From Felis catus (Eukaryota), in NCBI RefSeq assembly GCF_018350175.1, contig NC_058368.1:68326001-68390000 (forward strand): a stretch of DNA of 64,000 nucleotides. The letters run 5' to 3'. Shown here piece by piece: positions 3,898-59,480 of this stretch. The first letter of the stretch is position 1. Every line of letters begins with the position of its first letter. The notes below the pieces were generated by a model, which was not told the DNA's origin, did not search any database, and saw only the letters and a list, made by a program, of their open reading frames with translations. The position numbers and the translations under genes are program-made.

Positions 3898-4465
3898 ACC
3901 TTTATTTTGTTTCTTAGGTTCCACATATGTATGAAATCGTATGGTGTTTGTCTTTCTCTGACTGACTTATATTGTTTAGCGTAATAATCTCTAACTCCAT
4001 CCACATCATTGCAAATGGCAGGATTTCCTTCTTTTCTAAGGCTGAGTAATATTCTATTGTGTATATATACCATATCATTTTTATCCATTTATCAGTCAAT
4101 GGACATTTGGGCTGTTTAGAACTACCCTACAACCCAGGAATTGCACTATTAGTTATTTACCCAAAGAATAGAAAAAGAATAGAAGAAACAAAAAAAAATA
4201 GAAGAAACAAAGGGATACATGCATCATGGTGTTTATAACAGCATTATCTATAATAGACTGCTGGGATTTTTATTGGAATTATTTTAAATGTATAGATCAG
4301 TTGGAGGAGAACTGAAATCTTAAAAATATTGATTCTTCCTATCCATGAATATGGTATAACTTTCCATTAAACTTCCTTCATAAATGTTTTGCAGTTTTCA
4401 CTGTACTGGTCTTGCACATCTTTGGTTAGATTTATGGCTAAGTATTTCATATTTTTTAAATATAT

Positions 4466-13140: not shown

Positions 13141-13565
13141 GAGAGAGAGAGAAAAAGCACGAGCAGGGGAGGGGCAGAGGCAGAAGGAGACACAGAAACC
13201 AAACAGGCTCCAGGCTCTGAGCCATCAGCACAGAGCCCAGTGCGGGGCTCAAACCCATGAACTGTGTGATCATGACCTGAGCCAAAGTCAGATGTTTAAC
13301 CAACTGAACCACCCAGGTGCCCTGCCCTGTTTTTCTGACATCTCTTCTCTTTACATCCCATTCTCTGATCTCCTGCCTCCCTCCTTCAGTTATTAAAGGA
13401 CCCTTGTGATTGCAGGGGGCCCACCTGTGTAATCCAGTTTAAACTCCCCATTTCAAGGTCCTTAAATTAATCTCAAAGTCGTGTTTGCTGTGTAAAGTAA
13501 TACAGTTACAGGTTCTGTGGTTAGGATATGGGCATCTTTGCAAAGGCACTCTTTTACCTCCCACA
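12955..13565 (-). mobile_element. MaLR LTR (MLT1C/D-like), interrupted by a SINE
   Basis: ccatcttcaaagccagcaa, aaggacccttgtgattgca, acaggttctgtggttaggatatgggcatcttt, ending cccaca. Confidence 0.8.
13071..13322 (-). mobile_element. CAN-SINE
   Basis: Full element with long GA tract; degenerate TSD tgccct(ct)gtttt. Confidence 0.95.
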
Positions 13566-15675: not shown

Positions 15676-16104
15676 GGTTATTAATTCCTTATATGGGCAC
15701 AGCAGATTTCTAGAAGGATACACAAGAGAATGAGGACAAAGGCTTCTCTGTGGAGGGGAAGTGGATTTTGGGCGACAAATGGGGAAGGGAAATGTTTATT
15801 ATTCCACACATTCTGATCTTTTACTTTTATGCTGTTCCTATATTTAAAACAATCATATAGATCATTTACAAACAAGAAAAAATACTAGCTAAAGGCTTTA
15901 GCCTCAGCTGGGAGTTGGGGTGTAGTAACATATTTTGAACCAAGAATTTGAAATATCCCATACCCATTCAAAGTCATCCAACACTCTGGTGTGGACATGT
16001 CTCTGCTAACCATATGGTAATTTAATGTAAGTCCGTCAGGAGAAGTGTTGATGGTATTCTCCATCACTAGATCATTCATTCTCATTCCATTGACCTGGTT
16101 TTTG

Positions 16105-16687
16105 GGTTTCTTTTTGGGGGGTAGTATTGTTTATTTTTGTATTTATTAAGTTTTTTCAATTGTAATTCTAGTGTAGTTACCATACAGTGTTATATTAGTT
16201 TCGAGTGTACAATATCGTGATTCACCAATTCTATGCATTACTCAATGCTCATCATGACAAGTGCACTCCTTAATCCCCATCACCTATTTTACCCACCTCC
16301 CCCTACCTCCCCTCTGGTAACCATCAGGTTGTTCTCTATAGTTAAGGGTCTGTTTCTTGATTTGAGTGTGTGTCTCTCTCTCCTTTTTTCCTTTGCTCAT
16401 TTGTCTTGTTTCTTAACTTCTACATATGAGTGAAATCATATGGTATTTGTGTTTCTCTGACTGACTTATTTTGCTTTGCATTATACTCTCTAGATCCATC
16501 TATGTTGTTGCAAATGGCAAGATTTCATAATTTTTTATGGCATAATATTCCATCGTGTATACAGATACACCACATCTTCTTTATCCATTCATCTATAGAC
16601 GGACACTTGGGCTGCTACCATCATTCCGCTATTGTTAATGCTACAGTAAACATAGGGGTGGATGTATCCCTTTGAATTGGTGTTTTT
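16105..16687 (-). mobile_element. Carnivore L1 3' fragment
   Basis: Antisense 3' UTR (gtgttatattagtttcgagtgtacaat...ctctgactgacttattt...gcaaatggcaagatttc); TSD core cattgacc at 16088 and 16688. Confidence 0.85.
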
Positions 16688-17835
16688 CATTGACCCATTT
16701 TTAAGAGGACTCGCAGCAAAGTTGTGTCCAGAAAGACAGGGCTCTTGAGATCAAAATCACATTAGCTCTGAGCTGCAACAAGATTCGATCTTTTCCTCCA
16801 AGGAGGAGACAGAGGCTAGCCATAGGTCAGCAGATGAATAGCTGCTCACAAATGGATGAACTCAGTGTGTCTGGCAACAAGACGGAGACAGCAATCATAC
16901 TTGATTAAACAGGTGCCAGATACCAACCAGCATGTAATTGTGAGAAGTTAGAAGTAGCGGTTATGGTGTTGACAAGCAAAGGCACTTTGTTAGCATTAAG
17001 CATTTTCCCCTTCAACTGAAAGATAAATCCACAAGGGGAAACAATCCGTTCTTTCTTATTTTTGAAAGTAACTTTCTGTCTGGAAAACAATTTACTGCCA
17101 CCAGAAACGTGTCTTCCTTTAGCAAAGTATATAATTGGCTGCCATTTGACATTATGTGGCATTATTAAAGTCTTAAAATTCTCTTAATGTACTTTTTTTT
17201 TCTTGCCAATGAGCAACACTTTCACAATCACAGATTCCCTTGCTGTCTGTCCTACCTGGAATAATCTATTTTGAGAGCTTTTCAGCCAGAGATGATTTTG
17301 AAAGAGTGAGGTTCTTGGTACAACTTTATAGGATTAGATGGGTCAGACCGACATAAAGATAAAATGCAACCGTGGCTATTATTACTTTGGATTAATTTTT
17401 TTTTTATTCGGCAAACCACACTATGAAGGCCTTTTGTCAACTAACATCAGAACTACTGGCTTATAGAAATGTAGACTTCTACCTGGCCCCCAAGTCTAGT
17501 GCAGCTATCTCCTTCACTTGTGGCAAACATTTATGGATCACCGCTATGTGCAGAATTGACAGGAAACACCATGCAAACGTGGTCATGCTTCACCTTAATC
17601 TGAAAGACAGACTGTCAGTTTCTCCATGTTTCTGCTGCTCATTCAGGTTTGAGAACTACTGCGTGAGAAGATGAAAATAAATAGAAGACCGTGCCTTTGT
17701 TCCTTTGCAATGCACAATATAGTGAGTAAAGGCAAACCCCTTACATAGAAAGCAATTCGGTTTTATTATCAAGCAATATACCCATAGCATGGGAGGCACT
17801 TAGCAAAGGCCTGCTCCTTGAATACATGGCTGTCT

Positions 17836-24230: not shown

Positions 24231-24524
24231 TGATTCAGTTAATATAGAGGAAAAGCTTTTGATCCTGGCTGATTAATCATGGCTAATCCCCACATAGTGG
24301 AACTAATCAGTCTAACTCATGCACTTTTATTTAGCTACTTGGAGCTAAACTAGTTTGCAAATGTCTGACATGCAACCCATATATACTTTTGTATGCTTTA
24401 TTTTACATAAATGTTTTGCCTGGTCTCACTCATTACAGTGTAAATTTTCAAGCTTCATTAAGTGACTGTGTCTCACCTATTGTTCTTCCTGCCTTATAGT
24501 AGAACCTTAAAAATGTTTGTGAAA

Positions 24525-24581
24525 TGTACAGGGGCCATGCTAATCTCCTCTGTATAACTACAGAGTATTTTAGAGTATGTG
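24525..24581 (-). pseudogene. RNU6 (pseudogene): U6 snRNA pseudogene fragment (about nt 17-69), 3'-truncated, antisense to the adjacent L1
   Basis: 24529-24555 matches the reverse complement of U6 nt 39-65 at 26/27; 24567-24581 matches nt 17-31 at 13/15 (U6 sequence from memory). Confidence 0.9.
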
Positions 24582-25076
24582 GTAGGAATGTAAATTGGTA
24601 CAGCCTCTGTGGAAAATAGTATGGAGGTTCCTCAAAATATTAAAAATAGAAATAGGGGCGCCTGGGTGGCGCAGTCGGTTAAGCGTCCGACTTCAGCCAG
24701 GTCACGATCTCGCGGTCCGGGAGTTCGAGCCCCGCGTCGGGCTCTGGGCTGATGATGGCTCAGAGCCTGGAGCCTGTTTCCGATTCTGTGTCTCTCTCTC
24801 TCTCTGCCCCTCCCCCGTTCATGCTCTGTCTCTCTCTGTCCCAAAAATAAATAAACGTTGAGAAAAAAAAAATTTGGAAAAAAATAGAAATAATATATGA
24901 TCCAATAATTCCACTATTAGTTATTTACACAAAGAAATGAAAACACTGATTCAAAAAGATATATGTGCCTCTGTGTTTATTGCAGCATTATTTACAATAG
25001 CTGAGATATGGAAACAACCCAAGTGTCCATCAGCAGACAAATGGATAAGGAAGAGGTTGTGTGTTTACATACATAT

Positions 25077-25120
<44 letters not shown>

Positions 25121-25581
25121 GAAACAGAGTATTCCACAGCCATAAAAAAAGATGAGATTGTGCCATTCGTGATAACATGGATGGACCTAGACAGCATTAT
25201 GCTAAGTGAAATATGTCAGACAGAGAAGGACAAATAACATCTGATTTCAAATTTAAGTGGAATGAGAAAAAGTAAACAAACAAAAAGCAGAACCAGACCT
25301 ATAAATACAGAGAGCAAACAGATATTTACCAGAGGGACGTGGGGTGGGCAAAATGGGTGAAGGGGAGAGCGAGATACAGGCTTCCGGTTTTGGAATGAAT
25401 AAGTCATGGGAATAAAAGGCACCACATAGGGAATATAGTCAATAATATTGTGATAGTGATATGGGGACAGATGGCAGCTACACTTGCCTACATTTGACTA
25501 TAGCATAATGTATAAGCTTATGGAATCACTATGTTGTACACCTGAAACTAACATAAACTGTGTCAACTATACCCCAAGTTT
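24580..25581 (+). mobile_element. Carnivore L1 3' end (ORF2 C-terminus and 3' UTR), interrupted by a SINE and (CA)n
   Basis: ORF track LVQPLWKIVWRFLKILKIE and IWKQPKCPS are L1 ORF2 C-terminal motifs; 3' UTR ends ctatgttgtacacctgaaactaacat...gtcaactatac. Confidence 0.9.
24655..24879 (+). mobile_element. Young cat-type CAN-SINE (SINEC_Fc-like)
   Basis: ggggcgcctgggtggcgcagtcggttaagcgtccgac with CpGs intact; perfect TSD aaaaatagaaata at 24642-24654 and 24880-24892. Confidence 0.97.
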
Positions 25582-26568
25582 AAAAAGTTTGTGAACTGAA
25601 TAATAATAGTCATGCTTTTTCTCACTTTTGTGGAACAACCGGTAGAGTTTGGTTGGCACTACTGTTCTTTCACAGTTTAAGTTCTTGCCATTTTAATTGT
25701 CTTCTTCTGAGTTGGCATTTGATACCCTCCCTCAGATTCCTGGCCTCTCTCACCCCCTGCCTCTCCTATTCCCCCTTAGTTTAGGAAATAAATAGCCCAG
25801 ACATTTAAATACTTTCAGCTCAACAGATTTTTGGAATTCCCTCTCCCTGTCCCCCTTTTCTCTCTGTTATGAGAAAATATACTCTTATTGAGATAGAAAA
25901 TTAAAAGTTGATTCCACAGCTACTTGGGGATTTATTGAAACTAACACAAAAGGAACTGAAAAGTGTTTGGGTTTTTTTGCCCCCTAATGTCACTGCAGTT
26001 ATGCTTTGTGTCCAATACAAATAAATTCTTTCTTTATTTTGCCTTAAACTGGTGATTTCAGTGGAAACTGGTGGTTTCAGTGGAACATCATACTATTGTT
26101 GAAGATTATAAGTCAAGATATTTTCTCACATATTAAGTGAAAATGAGCACAATATATACAGTTTAATAAATCTTGTCATATATAATATAATTATACATAT
26201 ATGTACATACACATATAAAAATGCAAATGTATATTAATTAACTTGCCAATACACTGATAGGTGTACTTTGTGAATATTTTATTTAGGATTACTGTACTTT
26301 ATTTATAAATGAGATTAATTTTGGATCATGTGTTTATGTGTATGTGTGTGTGCATGAGAGCTCTCCTTGTCCAGTTTTGGAGTCAATATTATATAAGCAC
26401 TGTAGGATGAATGTGAAATTTTACATTTTTTTCTAAGCTCTGGAATAGTTTAGGTGTTGTTTTGCATTGCCTTGGGGTTTTTTTTGGGGGGGGAGGGGAT
26501 TTTTTTGGTATTCACTTATAAAATTATCTGGATTGGTAGTCTCAAATTAAGGATAGAGGTTTGCCTAA

Positions 26569-33254: not shown

Positions 33255-33419
33255 GGGGTGCCTGGGTGGCTCAGTCAGTTAAGCATCTGACTTCAGCTCA
33301 GGTCATGATCTCACAGTTTGTGAGTTCAAGCCCTGTGTCAGGCTCTGTGCTGACAGCTCAGGGCCTGGAGCCTGCTTCGGGTTCTGTCTCCCTCTCTCTC
33401 TGCCCCTCCCTGACTCATG

Positions 33420-34227: not shown

Positions 34228-34434
34228 GGGAGAGCCTGGGTGGCTCAGTCAGTTGAGCATCTGACTTCAGCTCAGATCATGATCTCATGGTTTGTGAGTT
34301 CGAGCCCTGTGTTGGGCTCTATGTGTATAGGCTCCAGCTCAGAGCCTGGAGCCTGCTTCAGATTCTGTGTCTCCCTCTCTCTCTGCCTTCTACTGTTCTC
34401 TCTCTCTCTCAAAAATAAATAAACATTAAAAAAA
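34228..34434 (+). mobile_element. CAN-SINE
   Basis: First of a tandem pair; outer TSD aagaatagttcag at 34211 and 34692. Confidence 0.95.
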
Positions 34435-36030: not shown

Positions 36031-37604
36031 TTATCTTTGTCAGCTCCAACCTCAGTCTACTCGCCTCTAGAGTGGAAAGACAGCATTCGGTGACCATAAG
36101 ATCCCTCCTGCGCTAGCATTTGGTAGTTTCTCCGCTAGATGAATGTAAGATCCCCCTGGCACTAACATTCTGTGATTTCCTCCCCCAGCATTTTTCTTGG
36201 GTTTGGCAATAGTGCCTTGGATTCTGTGAGCTGCGGCTCCCTCTCTCTCTCTCTCCATTTCCCTCTTCATCTTGCGAAGGGTACCTCTCTTATCTTCACC
36301 TTGTATGTTGGAACCATGTACTTGACAAAGAATATGGTAATGTATGCAACAAAGGCTTTGTGTACTAAATATAGCCTCAGACTTTTAAAGAGCTTTTTTT
36401 TTTCTTTTATGAGTGTTGGCAGCTGTTTTACTATGAAACAGGTCTCAGAAAGAGACGAGAACACATTCTATTTTGAGATAAAAGCTTCATCTGAGATGAA
36501 GAAATGACACTGTAATAAATGCCATCACAGTTAATGAAGTCAGGGTAGCAACTGATTTTTATTTGATTGTATGAGGCAAATTCTTCCAAATTTCCAGGTA
36601 CACATTCTGAACATAGACCAGCAGGACATCCTATTGTCAATCAATCAGAACTACAAGTTCATCTCTGTTCCATTCTTTTTTTTGGGGGGGGGGGCCTGGG
36701 GTTATAAGAAAAAAAGAGTAAGAAAAATAGACGTTAAAATCATTGACACTAGAATTTTCCTTTCTTTTCCTACTGCCTACATGAACGGGCAGCAGTTAAT
36801 TACCTGGTGAGAAACATTTGTGAACCTCAGTTTACAAACTAAAACAAATGATTAAAAAAATCATACCACACAAAAGTTCTGTTTATATCCCTTTGAAAAG
36901 TAAATGTGACAGTGCGGTGTTAATCATCTTTAAAAGGGGAATTTTAAAACCTTGCAGGCAGCAAATTTCCAAAGTGCTGATTATGTGCGCTAATTGTCTT
37001 TTGCTTGTTATTTCAATCCCTTAACTAGGAAGATTCTTAGCATATGTCTATTTTCCCACTACTTTCTTCAGGCAGAAACTCCCTTGGGTGGATATGCCTG
37101 ACAAAATCATTAAGTAAAAGTTTTATGAGCCTAGGTGGGATAACATTTGGAGATGACTGATTACATGATTGCAGCCAATTGTTTGTGGGACTTGGAAAGT
37201 CTCTAACATCTTTAAGGGGAATCCTTCCACTTGTAATCCATCAAAAGAATTGCAGCTTTCTCTAAGGATAAGCTTCCTTTGGGGTGTCACTGAGAAATAT
37301 TTCCGAGGCAACCTTGCACCAGCTTTGGTCTTTTTATTTTCTGATGGAAATAATCCCCCCTTTGTCACCAAAATACAATTTATGACTATGAGGCCATCCT
37401 CTGCTAGGATGTTTGCCCTTCGACAAGATTATTTGAGACCTCTTCCAGTTGTGTGCCAGAAATTATGTGCTAACTTTGTCTCATTAGATCCCTACTGATT
37501 AAGATACCTAACACAGGGGTGTAACTCGCTCCAGAAGTAGCTTGCTTTTTTTATAACTGTTATGAATCACATACATACATGTATGTCTTTGTTTATTTAT
37601 ATTT

Positions 37605-43736: not shown

Positions 43737-43937
43737 TTTTTTAATGTTTATTTATTTTTGTTAGAAAGAACACAAGGGAGGTAGGAGAAGAGAGAGAGGG
43801 AGACACAGAATCCGAAGCAGGCTCCAGGCTCCGAGCTGGCAGCACAGAGCCCGACGCGGGGCTAGAACCCACAGACCGTGAGATCGTGACCTAAGCTGAA
43901 GTCGGATGCCTAACCGACTAAGCCACCCAGGCTCCCC
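43737..43937 (-). mobile_element. CAN-SINE
   Basis: TSD tactggaacttttt at 43723-43736 and 43938-43951. Confidence 0.97.
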
Positions 43938-56486: not shown

Positions 56487-58109
56487 CTCTTCTACACTAT
56501 GTGCAACACCTATTTATAATCATTGTTGCAAATGAAAGAAAAACTTAAAATCAGTCCCAAGAGCTAACTCAATGAAGATACTATTTAATATTAAGAAGTC
56601 TTGAAAAGTAACTCAGGATTCAAATTAACCAACATTTATGGAGTCCTGACTACATGTTAAGTAACGGGCTATCTGCAGTTCTTGTAATCATTTTTGGAAA
56701 TGAGGGGAAAACTTAAAACGAGGAAATCCAAAACATTCTAAATTAAGATTCAGATTCAACCTAAATTTATTTAGTTCCCGCTGCGTGTGAAGTGCCATTC
56801 CAAATATCCACACAGACTGATTTTTATTTATTTATTACAAAACTTTGCCTGTCTGAATTAAACTTCAGAAGACATTCTGTAAAACGTTGTTTGTTTTCAG
56901 TACTGTCTCTGTGCCAGAATCTCTTGAGGATGTGATTTCACATTCCTGGGTCCCATGGCTGAAGGTTTGCATAAGATGGCTTGTTAGCTGGCTCCACAGG
57001 TGATTCTGGTGCCCCACCTTCGTTTACAGTGACCCTGGCTATCTCACGAACCAATTCCCTCCCCAAATTCTGAGAAATGGTTGTCTAACTTTCCCTTGAA
57101 AGTACCATCCCTCCCCTTTAAAAAATTTTCTGTAGGATTACAAACAAGAGAGCATATATCCTCTGATTCCCTAATTGCCATGGTCATTCATGAAGTAGTG
57201 TCTTAGAGGTCTCTTCCTCCCTGCACCTGCCCTGATAATAGATGCAGTTCTAAGGAAACTTCTTCCTTTAGCTTTTAGTGGCTATTTTTAGTCCCACATC
57301 CTCAAGTTATGTGACCTGAAATAGATTCTTACTAGGTTGAGAGATGACTTCCTCATGCAGCGGGCAGTGTCTTCAAGTTATTGAACTTTGCTGAGGCTGT
57401 TTCATTAGGATGCTTCTGTGCTGCACTATTTTTTGCCACCCCTAACCTCCCCTAATTTCTTTTTTTTAAACTTGCTCGCTCGTTTTATTGCCATCTCCAA
57501 AGCAGATTGGGAAATGGCAAATTTCTCCTTGACCAGCCAGGTGAAACTGTCAAATATAAATTCCATTTTCATAATTATTTCCTTTCACTTAAAAATAGCC
57601 CTCATTTCAACAGACAGAGACCTGTGGAACAGATAACAAGTCTAACAAACTTCTAATTATGTGTTCATGCAGGAGATGTGATCCAGACAACACAAAGAGA
57701 TCAGCAAAGACATTCATCTCCTTGTGCAGGAATCATCAACTTTAGCTCTGGTGTCAACCTTAGCTTACAGGCATGGGCTGCTTTGCCCTGCCACTGACTC
57801 CCACCTTCCATGGATCCAGGCCCTATGGCCAGCGGAGTCGCCCTCACTGATTTACAGTAATAAAGAAAGGCAGCCAGCCACAGGATGCCCAAGACGAAAG
57901 GCATTTAAAAACTTTCTGGAACGTATACAAAAATCTTCCTTTACCTTTATTTGGGATCTGTCTTGCTTGTGGGTTGTTTTTTTTTTTTTCTTCCTATGGC
58001 AGCTTTTTAAAAAAAGTTCATCATTTTGGACTGTGAGAGACATAAACTTATTAGTTTATATTTTTGGAGTTAAAAAAACACTAAAAGCAGTAGGGTAGAA
58101 ATTATTCTT

Positions 58110-59480
58110 ACTTTATTATTAACATATAGCTGACATACAACATCCTATTAGTTTCAGGAGTACATATGGTGATTTGATGTTTTTATACATTATGAAATGA
58201 TCCCCAGGATAAGTCTAGTCTGCATATGTCACCATGCAGAATTATTACAATATTATTGACTTTATTTCCTATGCTGTACATGACCTCCTCATGACTTGGG
58301 AGTTTGTTACTTCTTAGTACCCTTCACCTATTTGACCCAACCCCTCCCAGCCCCTTCCCACCTGTGATAACCAACAGATTGTTTCCTACATCTATGAGGC
58401 TGTTTCTATTTTGTTTTGTTTGTTCATTTGTTTGGGTTTTTTATATTCCATTTATAAATGAAATCGTTTGGTGTATGTCTTTCTCTGTCTAACTTATTTC
58501 ACTTGGCATAATACCTTCTAAGTCCATTCATGTTGTTGGAAATGGCAAGATTTCATTCTTTTTTATGGCTGAGTAATATTCCATTACACATATACACCAC
58601 ATCTTCTTTATCCATTCATCTACCAATGGACACATAGTCGACTTCCGTATCTTGGCTGTAAATAATGCTGCAATAAATATAAGGGTGCATACATCTCTTC
58701 AAATTGGTATTTTCATTTCTTCGGATAAATACCCAGAAGTGGAGTTGCTAGAAAGTACTACTTTTAATTTTTTGAGTAAACTCCATACTTTTTTCCACAG
58801 TGGCTGCACCAACCTGCATTCCCACCAACAGTGCACAAGGGTTCCTTTTTTTCCACATCCTCACCAGCACTTGTTATCTTTTGTTTCTGTTTTTGTTTTT
58901 TGACACTAGCCGATCTGACAGATGTGAGGTAATATCTCACTGTGGTTTTGACTTGCACATTTCCTTGATGATTAGTGATGTTGAACCCTTTTCATATACC
59001 TTTGGCCATTTGTATGTCTTCTTTGAAAAATGTGTATTCAAGTCCTTTGCCTTTTTAAAAATATAGAGGTGTTTTCTTTTGATATTAATTTATGTAAGTT
59101 CTTTATATCTTTTAGATAATAATCCCTTATTTTTTTAATGTTTATTTATTTTTGAGAGAGAGAGAGTGAGCAAGAGTGAGGAAGGAGCAGAGAGAGAAGG
59201 GGACAGAGAATCTGAAGCAGGCTCTGTGCTGACAGCAGAAAGCCTAATGCAGGGCTCAGACTCATAAACTGTGAGATCATGACCTGAGCCAAAGTTGGAT
59301 GCTTAACCAACTGAGCCACCCAGCTGCCCCGTATAACCGTTACGGAATGTATGATTTGCAAATATCTTCTCTTCCCCCATTCAGTAGTTTGTCTTTTCAT
59401 TGTGGTGATGGTTTCCTTCTCTGTGCAAAAGCTTTTTATTTTGATGTCATCCCATTTTTTAATTTTAGCTTTGGTTGTCC
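58110..59480 (-). mobile_element. Carnivore/L1MA9-like L1 3' ~1.2 kb, interrupted by a SINE
   Basis: ORF track MQVKTTVRYYLTSVR...[16 protein letters not shown] and TKAKIKKWDDIKIKSFCT are L1 ORF2 C-terminal motifs; antisense 3' UTR. Confidence 0.9.
59130..59330 (-). mobile_element. CAN-SINE
   Basis: Full element. Confidence 0.95.

Follow-up and report, generated by a model that had tools for sequence, protein, structure and literature searches.

In a 64,000-nt stretch of the cat genome (Felis catus, NC_058368.1, positions 68,326,001 to 68,390,000; here called the window) we observed a fragment of U6 snRNA that lies antisense and directly upstream of a 5'-truncated L1 3' end, both enclosed by one target-site duplication (TSD) at 24509–25598. 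This arrangement is probably the product of a single L1 retrotransposition, in which the L1 RNA was copied on the first target strand and a separate U6 RNA was primed internally on the second strand. The mechanism is already in print; the copy itself is new, and its kind is rare but described. The resulting retrocopy is dead, and nothing about it suggests a function.

The left copy of the TSD comprises 18 nt (24509–24526, plus strand) and the right copy 17 nt (25582–25598, plus strand), and 16 of 18 aligned positions are identical, the differences being one 1-nt indel and one substitution. No other pair with three or fewer mismatches was found within the window. The alignment score of 15 was equalled by none of 19,946 random 30-mers (best score 12) and by none of 5,932 A-run 30-mers (best score 11). 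One TSD encloses both the U6 piece and the L1, far beyond what is expected by chance, and its right copy is located 1 kb from the U6 piece, at the 3' end of the L1. TT precedes position 24509, which gives a TT/AAAA site of the L1 endonuclease type at 24507–24512; this site is consensus in the orientation of the L1, while the opposite end of the TSD, read in the orientation of the U6, is not. Both the single TSD around U6 and L1 and the endonuclease site at its left copy had been claimed in a first-pass annotation of this DNA, and both held up. It is the duplication by itself that would argue for a single event. A search of sequencing runs returned 24 rows, 20 of which carry 98–99% of the 600 words of the stretch; 19 of these come from one organism and 1 from another, and none is an outgroup. 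A word share of this size does not in itself establish the junction.

We searched for a duplication around the U6 piece alone and found none, local alignments yielding scraps of 5–7 nt only. This result bears on the possibility of two events, namely that a tailless U6 retrocopy and an L1 were inserted separately, one of them exactly at the TSD boundary of the other and without a duplication of its own. A-rich target sites commonly take stacked insertions, and the abundance of stand-alone 3'-truncated U6 copies in the cat makes a separate U6 insertion more likely from the outset. According to the available part of Doucet et al. (2015, PMC4476161), cat, dog and ferret have many tailless U6 copies, and Table 2 of that paper gives 236 of 279 analysed cat U6 copies as 3'-truncated. 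However, two events would demand an insertion precisely at the edge of the TSD, a second TSD was not found, the site departs from the consensus when read in the direction of the U6, and U6 nt 1–16 are missing right at the L1 junction; we regard this course of events as quite improbable. A tailless (Group III) U6 retropseudogene was dismissed as well, as a U6-only TSD and a consensus site in the U6 orientation were not found and the U6 piece starts at nt 17–18 and not at nt 1.

Comparison of positions 24500–24600 with U6 in Rfam, a check named in the first-pass annotation, gave a match to RF00026 at 24495–24595 on the minus strand (E = 0.0012, 26.1 bits). The score lies under the gathering score of 44, as is to be expected of a partial U6, and at gathering scores no Rfam match was obtained anywhere in the window. 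When U6 similarity was scored for 1,278 tiles over the whole window, the two tiles at this locus ranked on top (64 and 45), followed by one of 40, with a mean of 20.6. The tile that follows, at 36251 (score 40), was dismissed since its alignment is heavily gapped, and Rfam matches to mir-297, SCARNA7 and sno_ZL1 were dismissed since they sit on a (CA)n run.

The U6 reference for the comparison at base level was chosen from 116 metagenome loci that share an 18-base U6 core with the window. The chosen locus, L116, holds a U6 gene of metazoan type from a non-vertebrate, and the identity figures given below are relative to it. Over U6 nt 18–72 the same sequence occurs in 10 other loci (11 of the 106 loci that are long enough), and the numbering of L116 equals the human U6 numbering in the available part of PMC11734702 (C19, A20, U21, C68). 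Compared with the rest of the window, the 116 loci showed no similarity at E < 1e-6. Among the metagenome U6 copies, five (L015, L026, L107, L051 and L085) depart from the U6 sequence at about nt 68–71, and some of these may be intron-bearing U6 genes or truncated retrocopies. Another group of U6 genes carries an additional insertion, hairpin-like in appearance, downstream of about nt 80 (L040, L084, L023, L074, L041, L032, L105, L106, L016, L066, L088, L112, L006, L067 and L060).

Relative to this reference, the first part of the cat fragment (24525–24555, minus strand) runs antisense to the L1 and corresponds to U6 nt 69 to 39. Within it, nt 39–65 (24555–24529) are identical at 26 of 27 positions, the single substitution falling on nt 47; nt 66–67 are mismatched as expected of CpG decay on both strands, and nt 68–69 are identical and common to the end of the TSD. 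The second part (24567–24581, minus strand) corresponds to U6 nt 31 to 18 or 17, with 12 of 14 positions identical over nt 18–31 (24580–24567) and the last 1–2 nt common to the start of the L1. The piece as a whole is thus antisense, covers about nt 17–69 and is 3'-truncated, with no U6 sequence past nt 69. A minus-strand U6 fragment of this extent, with the same identity over nt 39–65, had been described in the first-pass annotation, and the RF00026 match and the L116 alignment both confirm it.

Between the two parts, U6 nt 32–38 are replaced by 11 nt (24556–24566, plus strand), a detail beyond the first description of the locus. Ten of the 11 nt read as sense U6 35–37 plus 40–46, and this sense copy of U6 35–46 pairs with the antisense piece next to it in a perfect 7-bp hairpin (24548–24566). 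In 20,000 draws of random 11-mers, 0.3–0.5% matched as well when a gapped score was used and 1.1–1.6% when a 7-nt exact match was used. The replacement is a likely candidate for a later short-range template-switch mutation. It resembles the template-switch type 1-3-4-2 / 3-1-2-4 in the available part of Loytynoja and Goldman (2017, PMC5453318) in that an inverted repeat is accompanied by an inverted spacer, but only 10 nt match here, and the type does not account for the gap of 2 nt or for the additional base. The same source cautions that matches under 12–13 bp are often products of chance; a confident call takes a reverse-complement copy of nearby sequence of 14 nt or more, compared to 10 nt with a 2-nt gap in our case. 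If the spacer was templated, the switch would require double-stranded DNA, and it would therefore have happened after the insertion or late in it.

On the other side of the U6 piece, the L1 adjoins at 24580–24581 in the opposite orientation (U6 on the minus strand, L1 on the plus strand), the U6 lying directly 5' of the L1. Its 5' end, from late ORF2, occupies 24580–24654 (plus strand) and was recognized by its likeness to a second L1 in the window. The frameshifted ORF2 C-terminus and the 3' UTR follow at 24893–25581 (plus strand), a part that includes a (CA)n run (approximately 25079–25117). The similarity to the L1 3' end at 58050–59090 (minus strand) begins at 24580 and reaches the end of the 3' UTR, with 63% identity over 785 columns. 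Translated segments match L1 ORF2p from PDB sequences at aa 1185–1222 (E = 3.5e-9) and aa 1230–1265 (E = 1.2e-5); in a Pfam search neither of the two short L1 peptides was matched. Because of the similarity within the window and the two ORF2p matches, we take the L1 to be a dead plus-strand copy of which about 0.76 kb remain after 5' truncation. That the U6 is joined to such an L1 3' end, as annotated earlier, was borne out by the same evidence. The 3' UTR extends to the right TSD, the remaining A's are the TSD's own five and there is no separate poly(A) tail, which was presumably lost with age.

The two L1 parts are separated by a tRNA-derived SINE (24655–24892, plus strand), which we take to be of the Can-SINE type, a type that suggests a carnivore genome and probably that of a felid. 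It has a perfect 13-nt TSD of its own (24642–24654 and 24880–24892). The SINE is younger than its host L1, and the observed/expected ratio of CpG is 0.79 in the SINE compared to 0.17 in the L1. Including its TSDs (24642–24892) it shows about 20% divergence from the remaining SINE copies in the window and could serve as a presence/absence marker. Four tRNA calls made by ARAGORN (13233–13318, 33260–33345, 34234–34319 and 43847–43932) all fall within SINE copies and were rejected as tRNA genes, being SINE heads. The old L1 3' fragments on the minus strand at 58050–59090, 16100–16900 and about 3900–4200, which are 63–79% like the L1 described here in local alignments, served solely as references.

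At the junction between TSD and U6, the TSD ends in 2 nt that also represent U6 nt 68–69, and the match goes no further. Since the 107-nt U6 offers 8 sites with which this dinucleotide could pair, the 2-nt homology is weak when taken alone. The U6 and the L1 have 1 nt in common at their junction if L116 is the reference and 2 nt if nt 17 of vertebrate U6 is a C, as we assume. A microhomology of 2 nt had been proposed for both junctions; it stands for TSD/U6, whereas for U6/L1 one nucleotide is supported and the second hinges on a C at nt 17 of vertebrate U6. The U6 piece starts at nt 17–18, nt 1–16 being absent exactly at the L1 junction. These boundaries are also relevant to another explanation, in which a template switch or a 5' truncation affected a transcript that already contained an antisense U6 pseudogene, be it the source L1 or a host RNA. 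The rearrangement of the U6 could then go back to a DNA copy that existed before the insertion. However, the insertion starts exactly at the U6 breakpoint, without any flank of a source locus, and the breakpoint is the same as in independent human cases; we consider such an origin very improbable indeed.

The U6 breakpoint itself falls into a loop: in the predicted fold, nt 65–69 form the loop of a hairpin, and C68 is placed in the pentaloop of the U6 internal stem loop (ISL) in the available part of PMC11734702. The second template of a single twin-priming event might have been a U6 RNA cleaved beforehand within the loop of the ISL (at about nt 67–69) and not an intact U6, an origin of the kind that has been suggested for tRNA halves and U3 fragments. 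In Table S2 of Law and Burns (2026, PMC13174262), which lists 180 human U6/L1 chimeras, 7 U6 rows stop short of nt 90, and 3 of these have their end at nt 67–69, one of them sense (1–67); one sense row begins at nt 67 (67–107), and the available text invokes cleavage for fragments of U3, 5S and tRNA. However, the ends reported by RepeatMasker are imprecise for old copies, and a 2-nt homology between target and U6 is found at the breakpoint both here and in the case of Doucet et al. (available part of PMC4476161). In addition, according to the available part of PMC5322556, truncated source RNAs were not found for tailless copies of 5S and U2, and internal priming is favoured. On balance we regard a pre-cut U6 as unlikely, although less so than two events or an inherited antisense U6.

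We prefer twin priming on an intact U6, for which the following course is conceivable. ORF2p would nick the bottom strand at TTTT/AA and reverse-transcribe about 0.76 kb of the L1 3' end, as suggested by the site and by the L1 itself; nicking and reverse transcription by the L1 machinery are well established. Then the top strand would be cut 17–18 nt downstream, corresponding to the TSD. The 3' end of the top strand would pair by 2 nt with U6 nt 68–69 in the unpaired ISL pentaloop and the cDNA would be extended toward the 5' end of U6; the homology and the position of the loop are observed, and priming is our interpretation of them. The two cDNAs would be joined by a microhomology of 1–2 nt at U6 nt 17–18, with loss of nt 1–16, a step of which the junction is visible and the joining is deduced. 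Finally, the likely template switch at U6 nt 32–38, the CpG decay, the drift of the TSD and the gain of the SINE and the (CA)n run by the L1 would have followed, changes that are all seen in the sequence and whose order is presumed. The head-to-head anatomy, the single TSD, an endonuclease site that is consensus only when read in the direction of the L1, and the 2-nt TSD/U6 homology place the copy within the twin-priming class as it is delimited in the available part of PMC4476161. Counted against this reading are the imperfect TSD copies (16 of 18), the absent poly(A) tail, the weakness of the 2-nt homology, the use of a non-vertebrate U6 reference and the antisense human rows whose U6 ends elsewhere than at nt 67–69. 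The first-pass annotation had likewise proposed a single event with twin priming in trans on U6; we find this supported and the likely explanation, the anatomy fitting the class just cited and the TSD being the one feature that would speak for a single event.

With the cat copy, a class with few members, to which 3 of 180 human U6/L1 chimeras belong (PMC13174262, Table S2), gains a case from outside the primates. Since the cat copy and 2 of the 3 antisense human copies in that table share the same end, we tentatively suggest that U6 nt 67–69, at the tip of the ISL, are a recurrent entry point for the L1 reverse transcriptase in primates and carnivores, and that the internal inversion is perhaps a fold-back formed at the time of insertion; the odds are against this suggestion at present. 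The repetition of the human breakpoint in the cat speaks for a genuine structural preference and against coincidence. In the U4/U6 snRNP, the stretch of U6 nt 67–69 is paired to U4. Owing to this pairing the chimeras would, if the suggestion is true, preserve a trace of the U6 conformer that ORF2p encounters in the nucleus of germline cells, be it free U6 or a half cut in the loop. As 3'-truncated U6 copies are far commoner in carnivores than in humans, a carnivore census could weigh internal priming against pre-cut RNA, and the recurring breakpoint at nt 67–69 is the sole lead that we judged worth a census.

In a literature search that covered mostly freely accessible papers, no paper on this locus and no census of antisense U6/L1 chimeras in carnivores was found. 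The most frequent human form is the sense chimera, which makes up 98.3% of the 180 U6/L1 chimeras in the available part of PMC13174262 and is ascribed to RtcB ligation or template switch in that of Moldovan et al. (2019, PMC6789731). The cat copy has the same partners, one TSD and an L1 endonuclease site in common with it. However, in the standard chimera a full-length sense U6 is joined to the L1 by its 3' oligo(U), whereas in the cat only part of the U6 is present, in antisense, and its 5' side adjoins the L1. RtcB ligation was rejected for the cat copy, as in the available description (PMC6789731) it joins the 3' end of U6 to the L1, sense or antisense, which makes a head-to-head geometry impossible.

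The antisense human chimeras are closer to our case. Read by eye, Table S2 of PMC13174262 contains 3 antisense rows among 180, in agreement with the published 98.3% for sense, with U6 27–68 (L1PA7), 7–69 (L1PA7) and 1–44 (L1PREC2), and the U6 sheet of Table S3 contains one among 23 rows, which is near full length (1–101). Like the cat copy, the antisense rows of Table S2 show a U6 piece directly 5' of a truncated L1, and 2 of the 3 end at nt 68–69; if the available rows of both tables are combined, 2 of 4 have the 3' end of the cat copy and 2 of 4 do not. In the available antisense rows for U2, U5 and 5S, too, the RNA commonly lacks its 5' end. The human rows were vetted on multi-species alignments, whereas the cat locus is known from its own sequence. 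As a separate observation, the sense rows 1–67 and 67–107 of Table S2 beside the antisense ends at 68 and 69 hint at a cut or a stall point in the ISL loop.

The closest known class is that of the inverted 3'-truncated snRNA/L1 chimeras, which the available part of Doucet et al. (PMC4476161) ascribes to twin priming as a minority of Group IV and which comprises U1, U2, U5 and one U6 (case #10, U6_3'trunc-L1, with a breakpoint at nt 68 and 2-nt homology). The remark in the first-pass annotation that inverted, 3'-truncated U6 copies are a rarer class already described was therefore right. As in this class, in the cat a 3'-truncated snRNA is inverted upstream of a 5'-truncated L1, with one TSD, short homology at the junctions and a site that fits the endonuclease consensus solely in the direction of the L1; apart from a visible poly(A) tail, the cat copy shows every sequence feature of the class that we assessed. 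Case #10 is probably the row 27–68 of Table S2, going by L1 length and breakpoint. Compared to the available data on case #10, the U6 breakpoint is nt 67–69 here and nt 68 there, with 2-nt homology in both, but the cat copy comes from a carnivore and not from human, its L1 is about 0.76 kb long compared to 121 nt, its TSD 17–18 nt compared to 7 nt, and the rearrangement inside the U6 piece is a feature of the cat copy.
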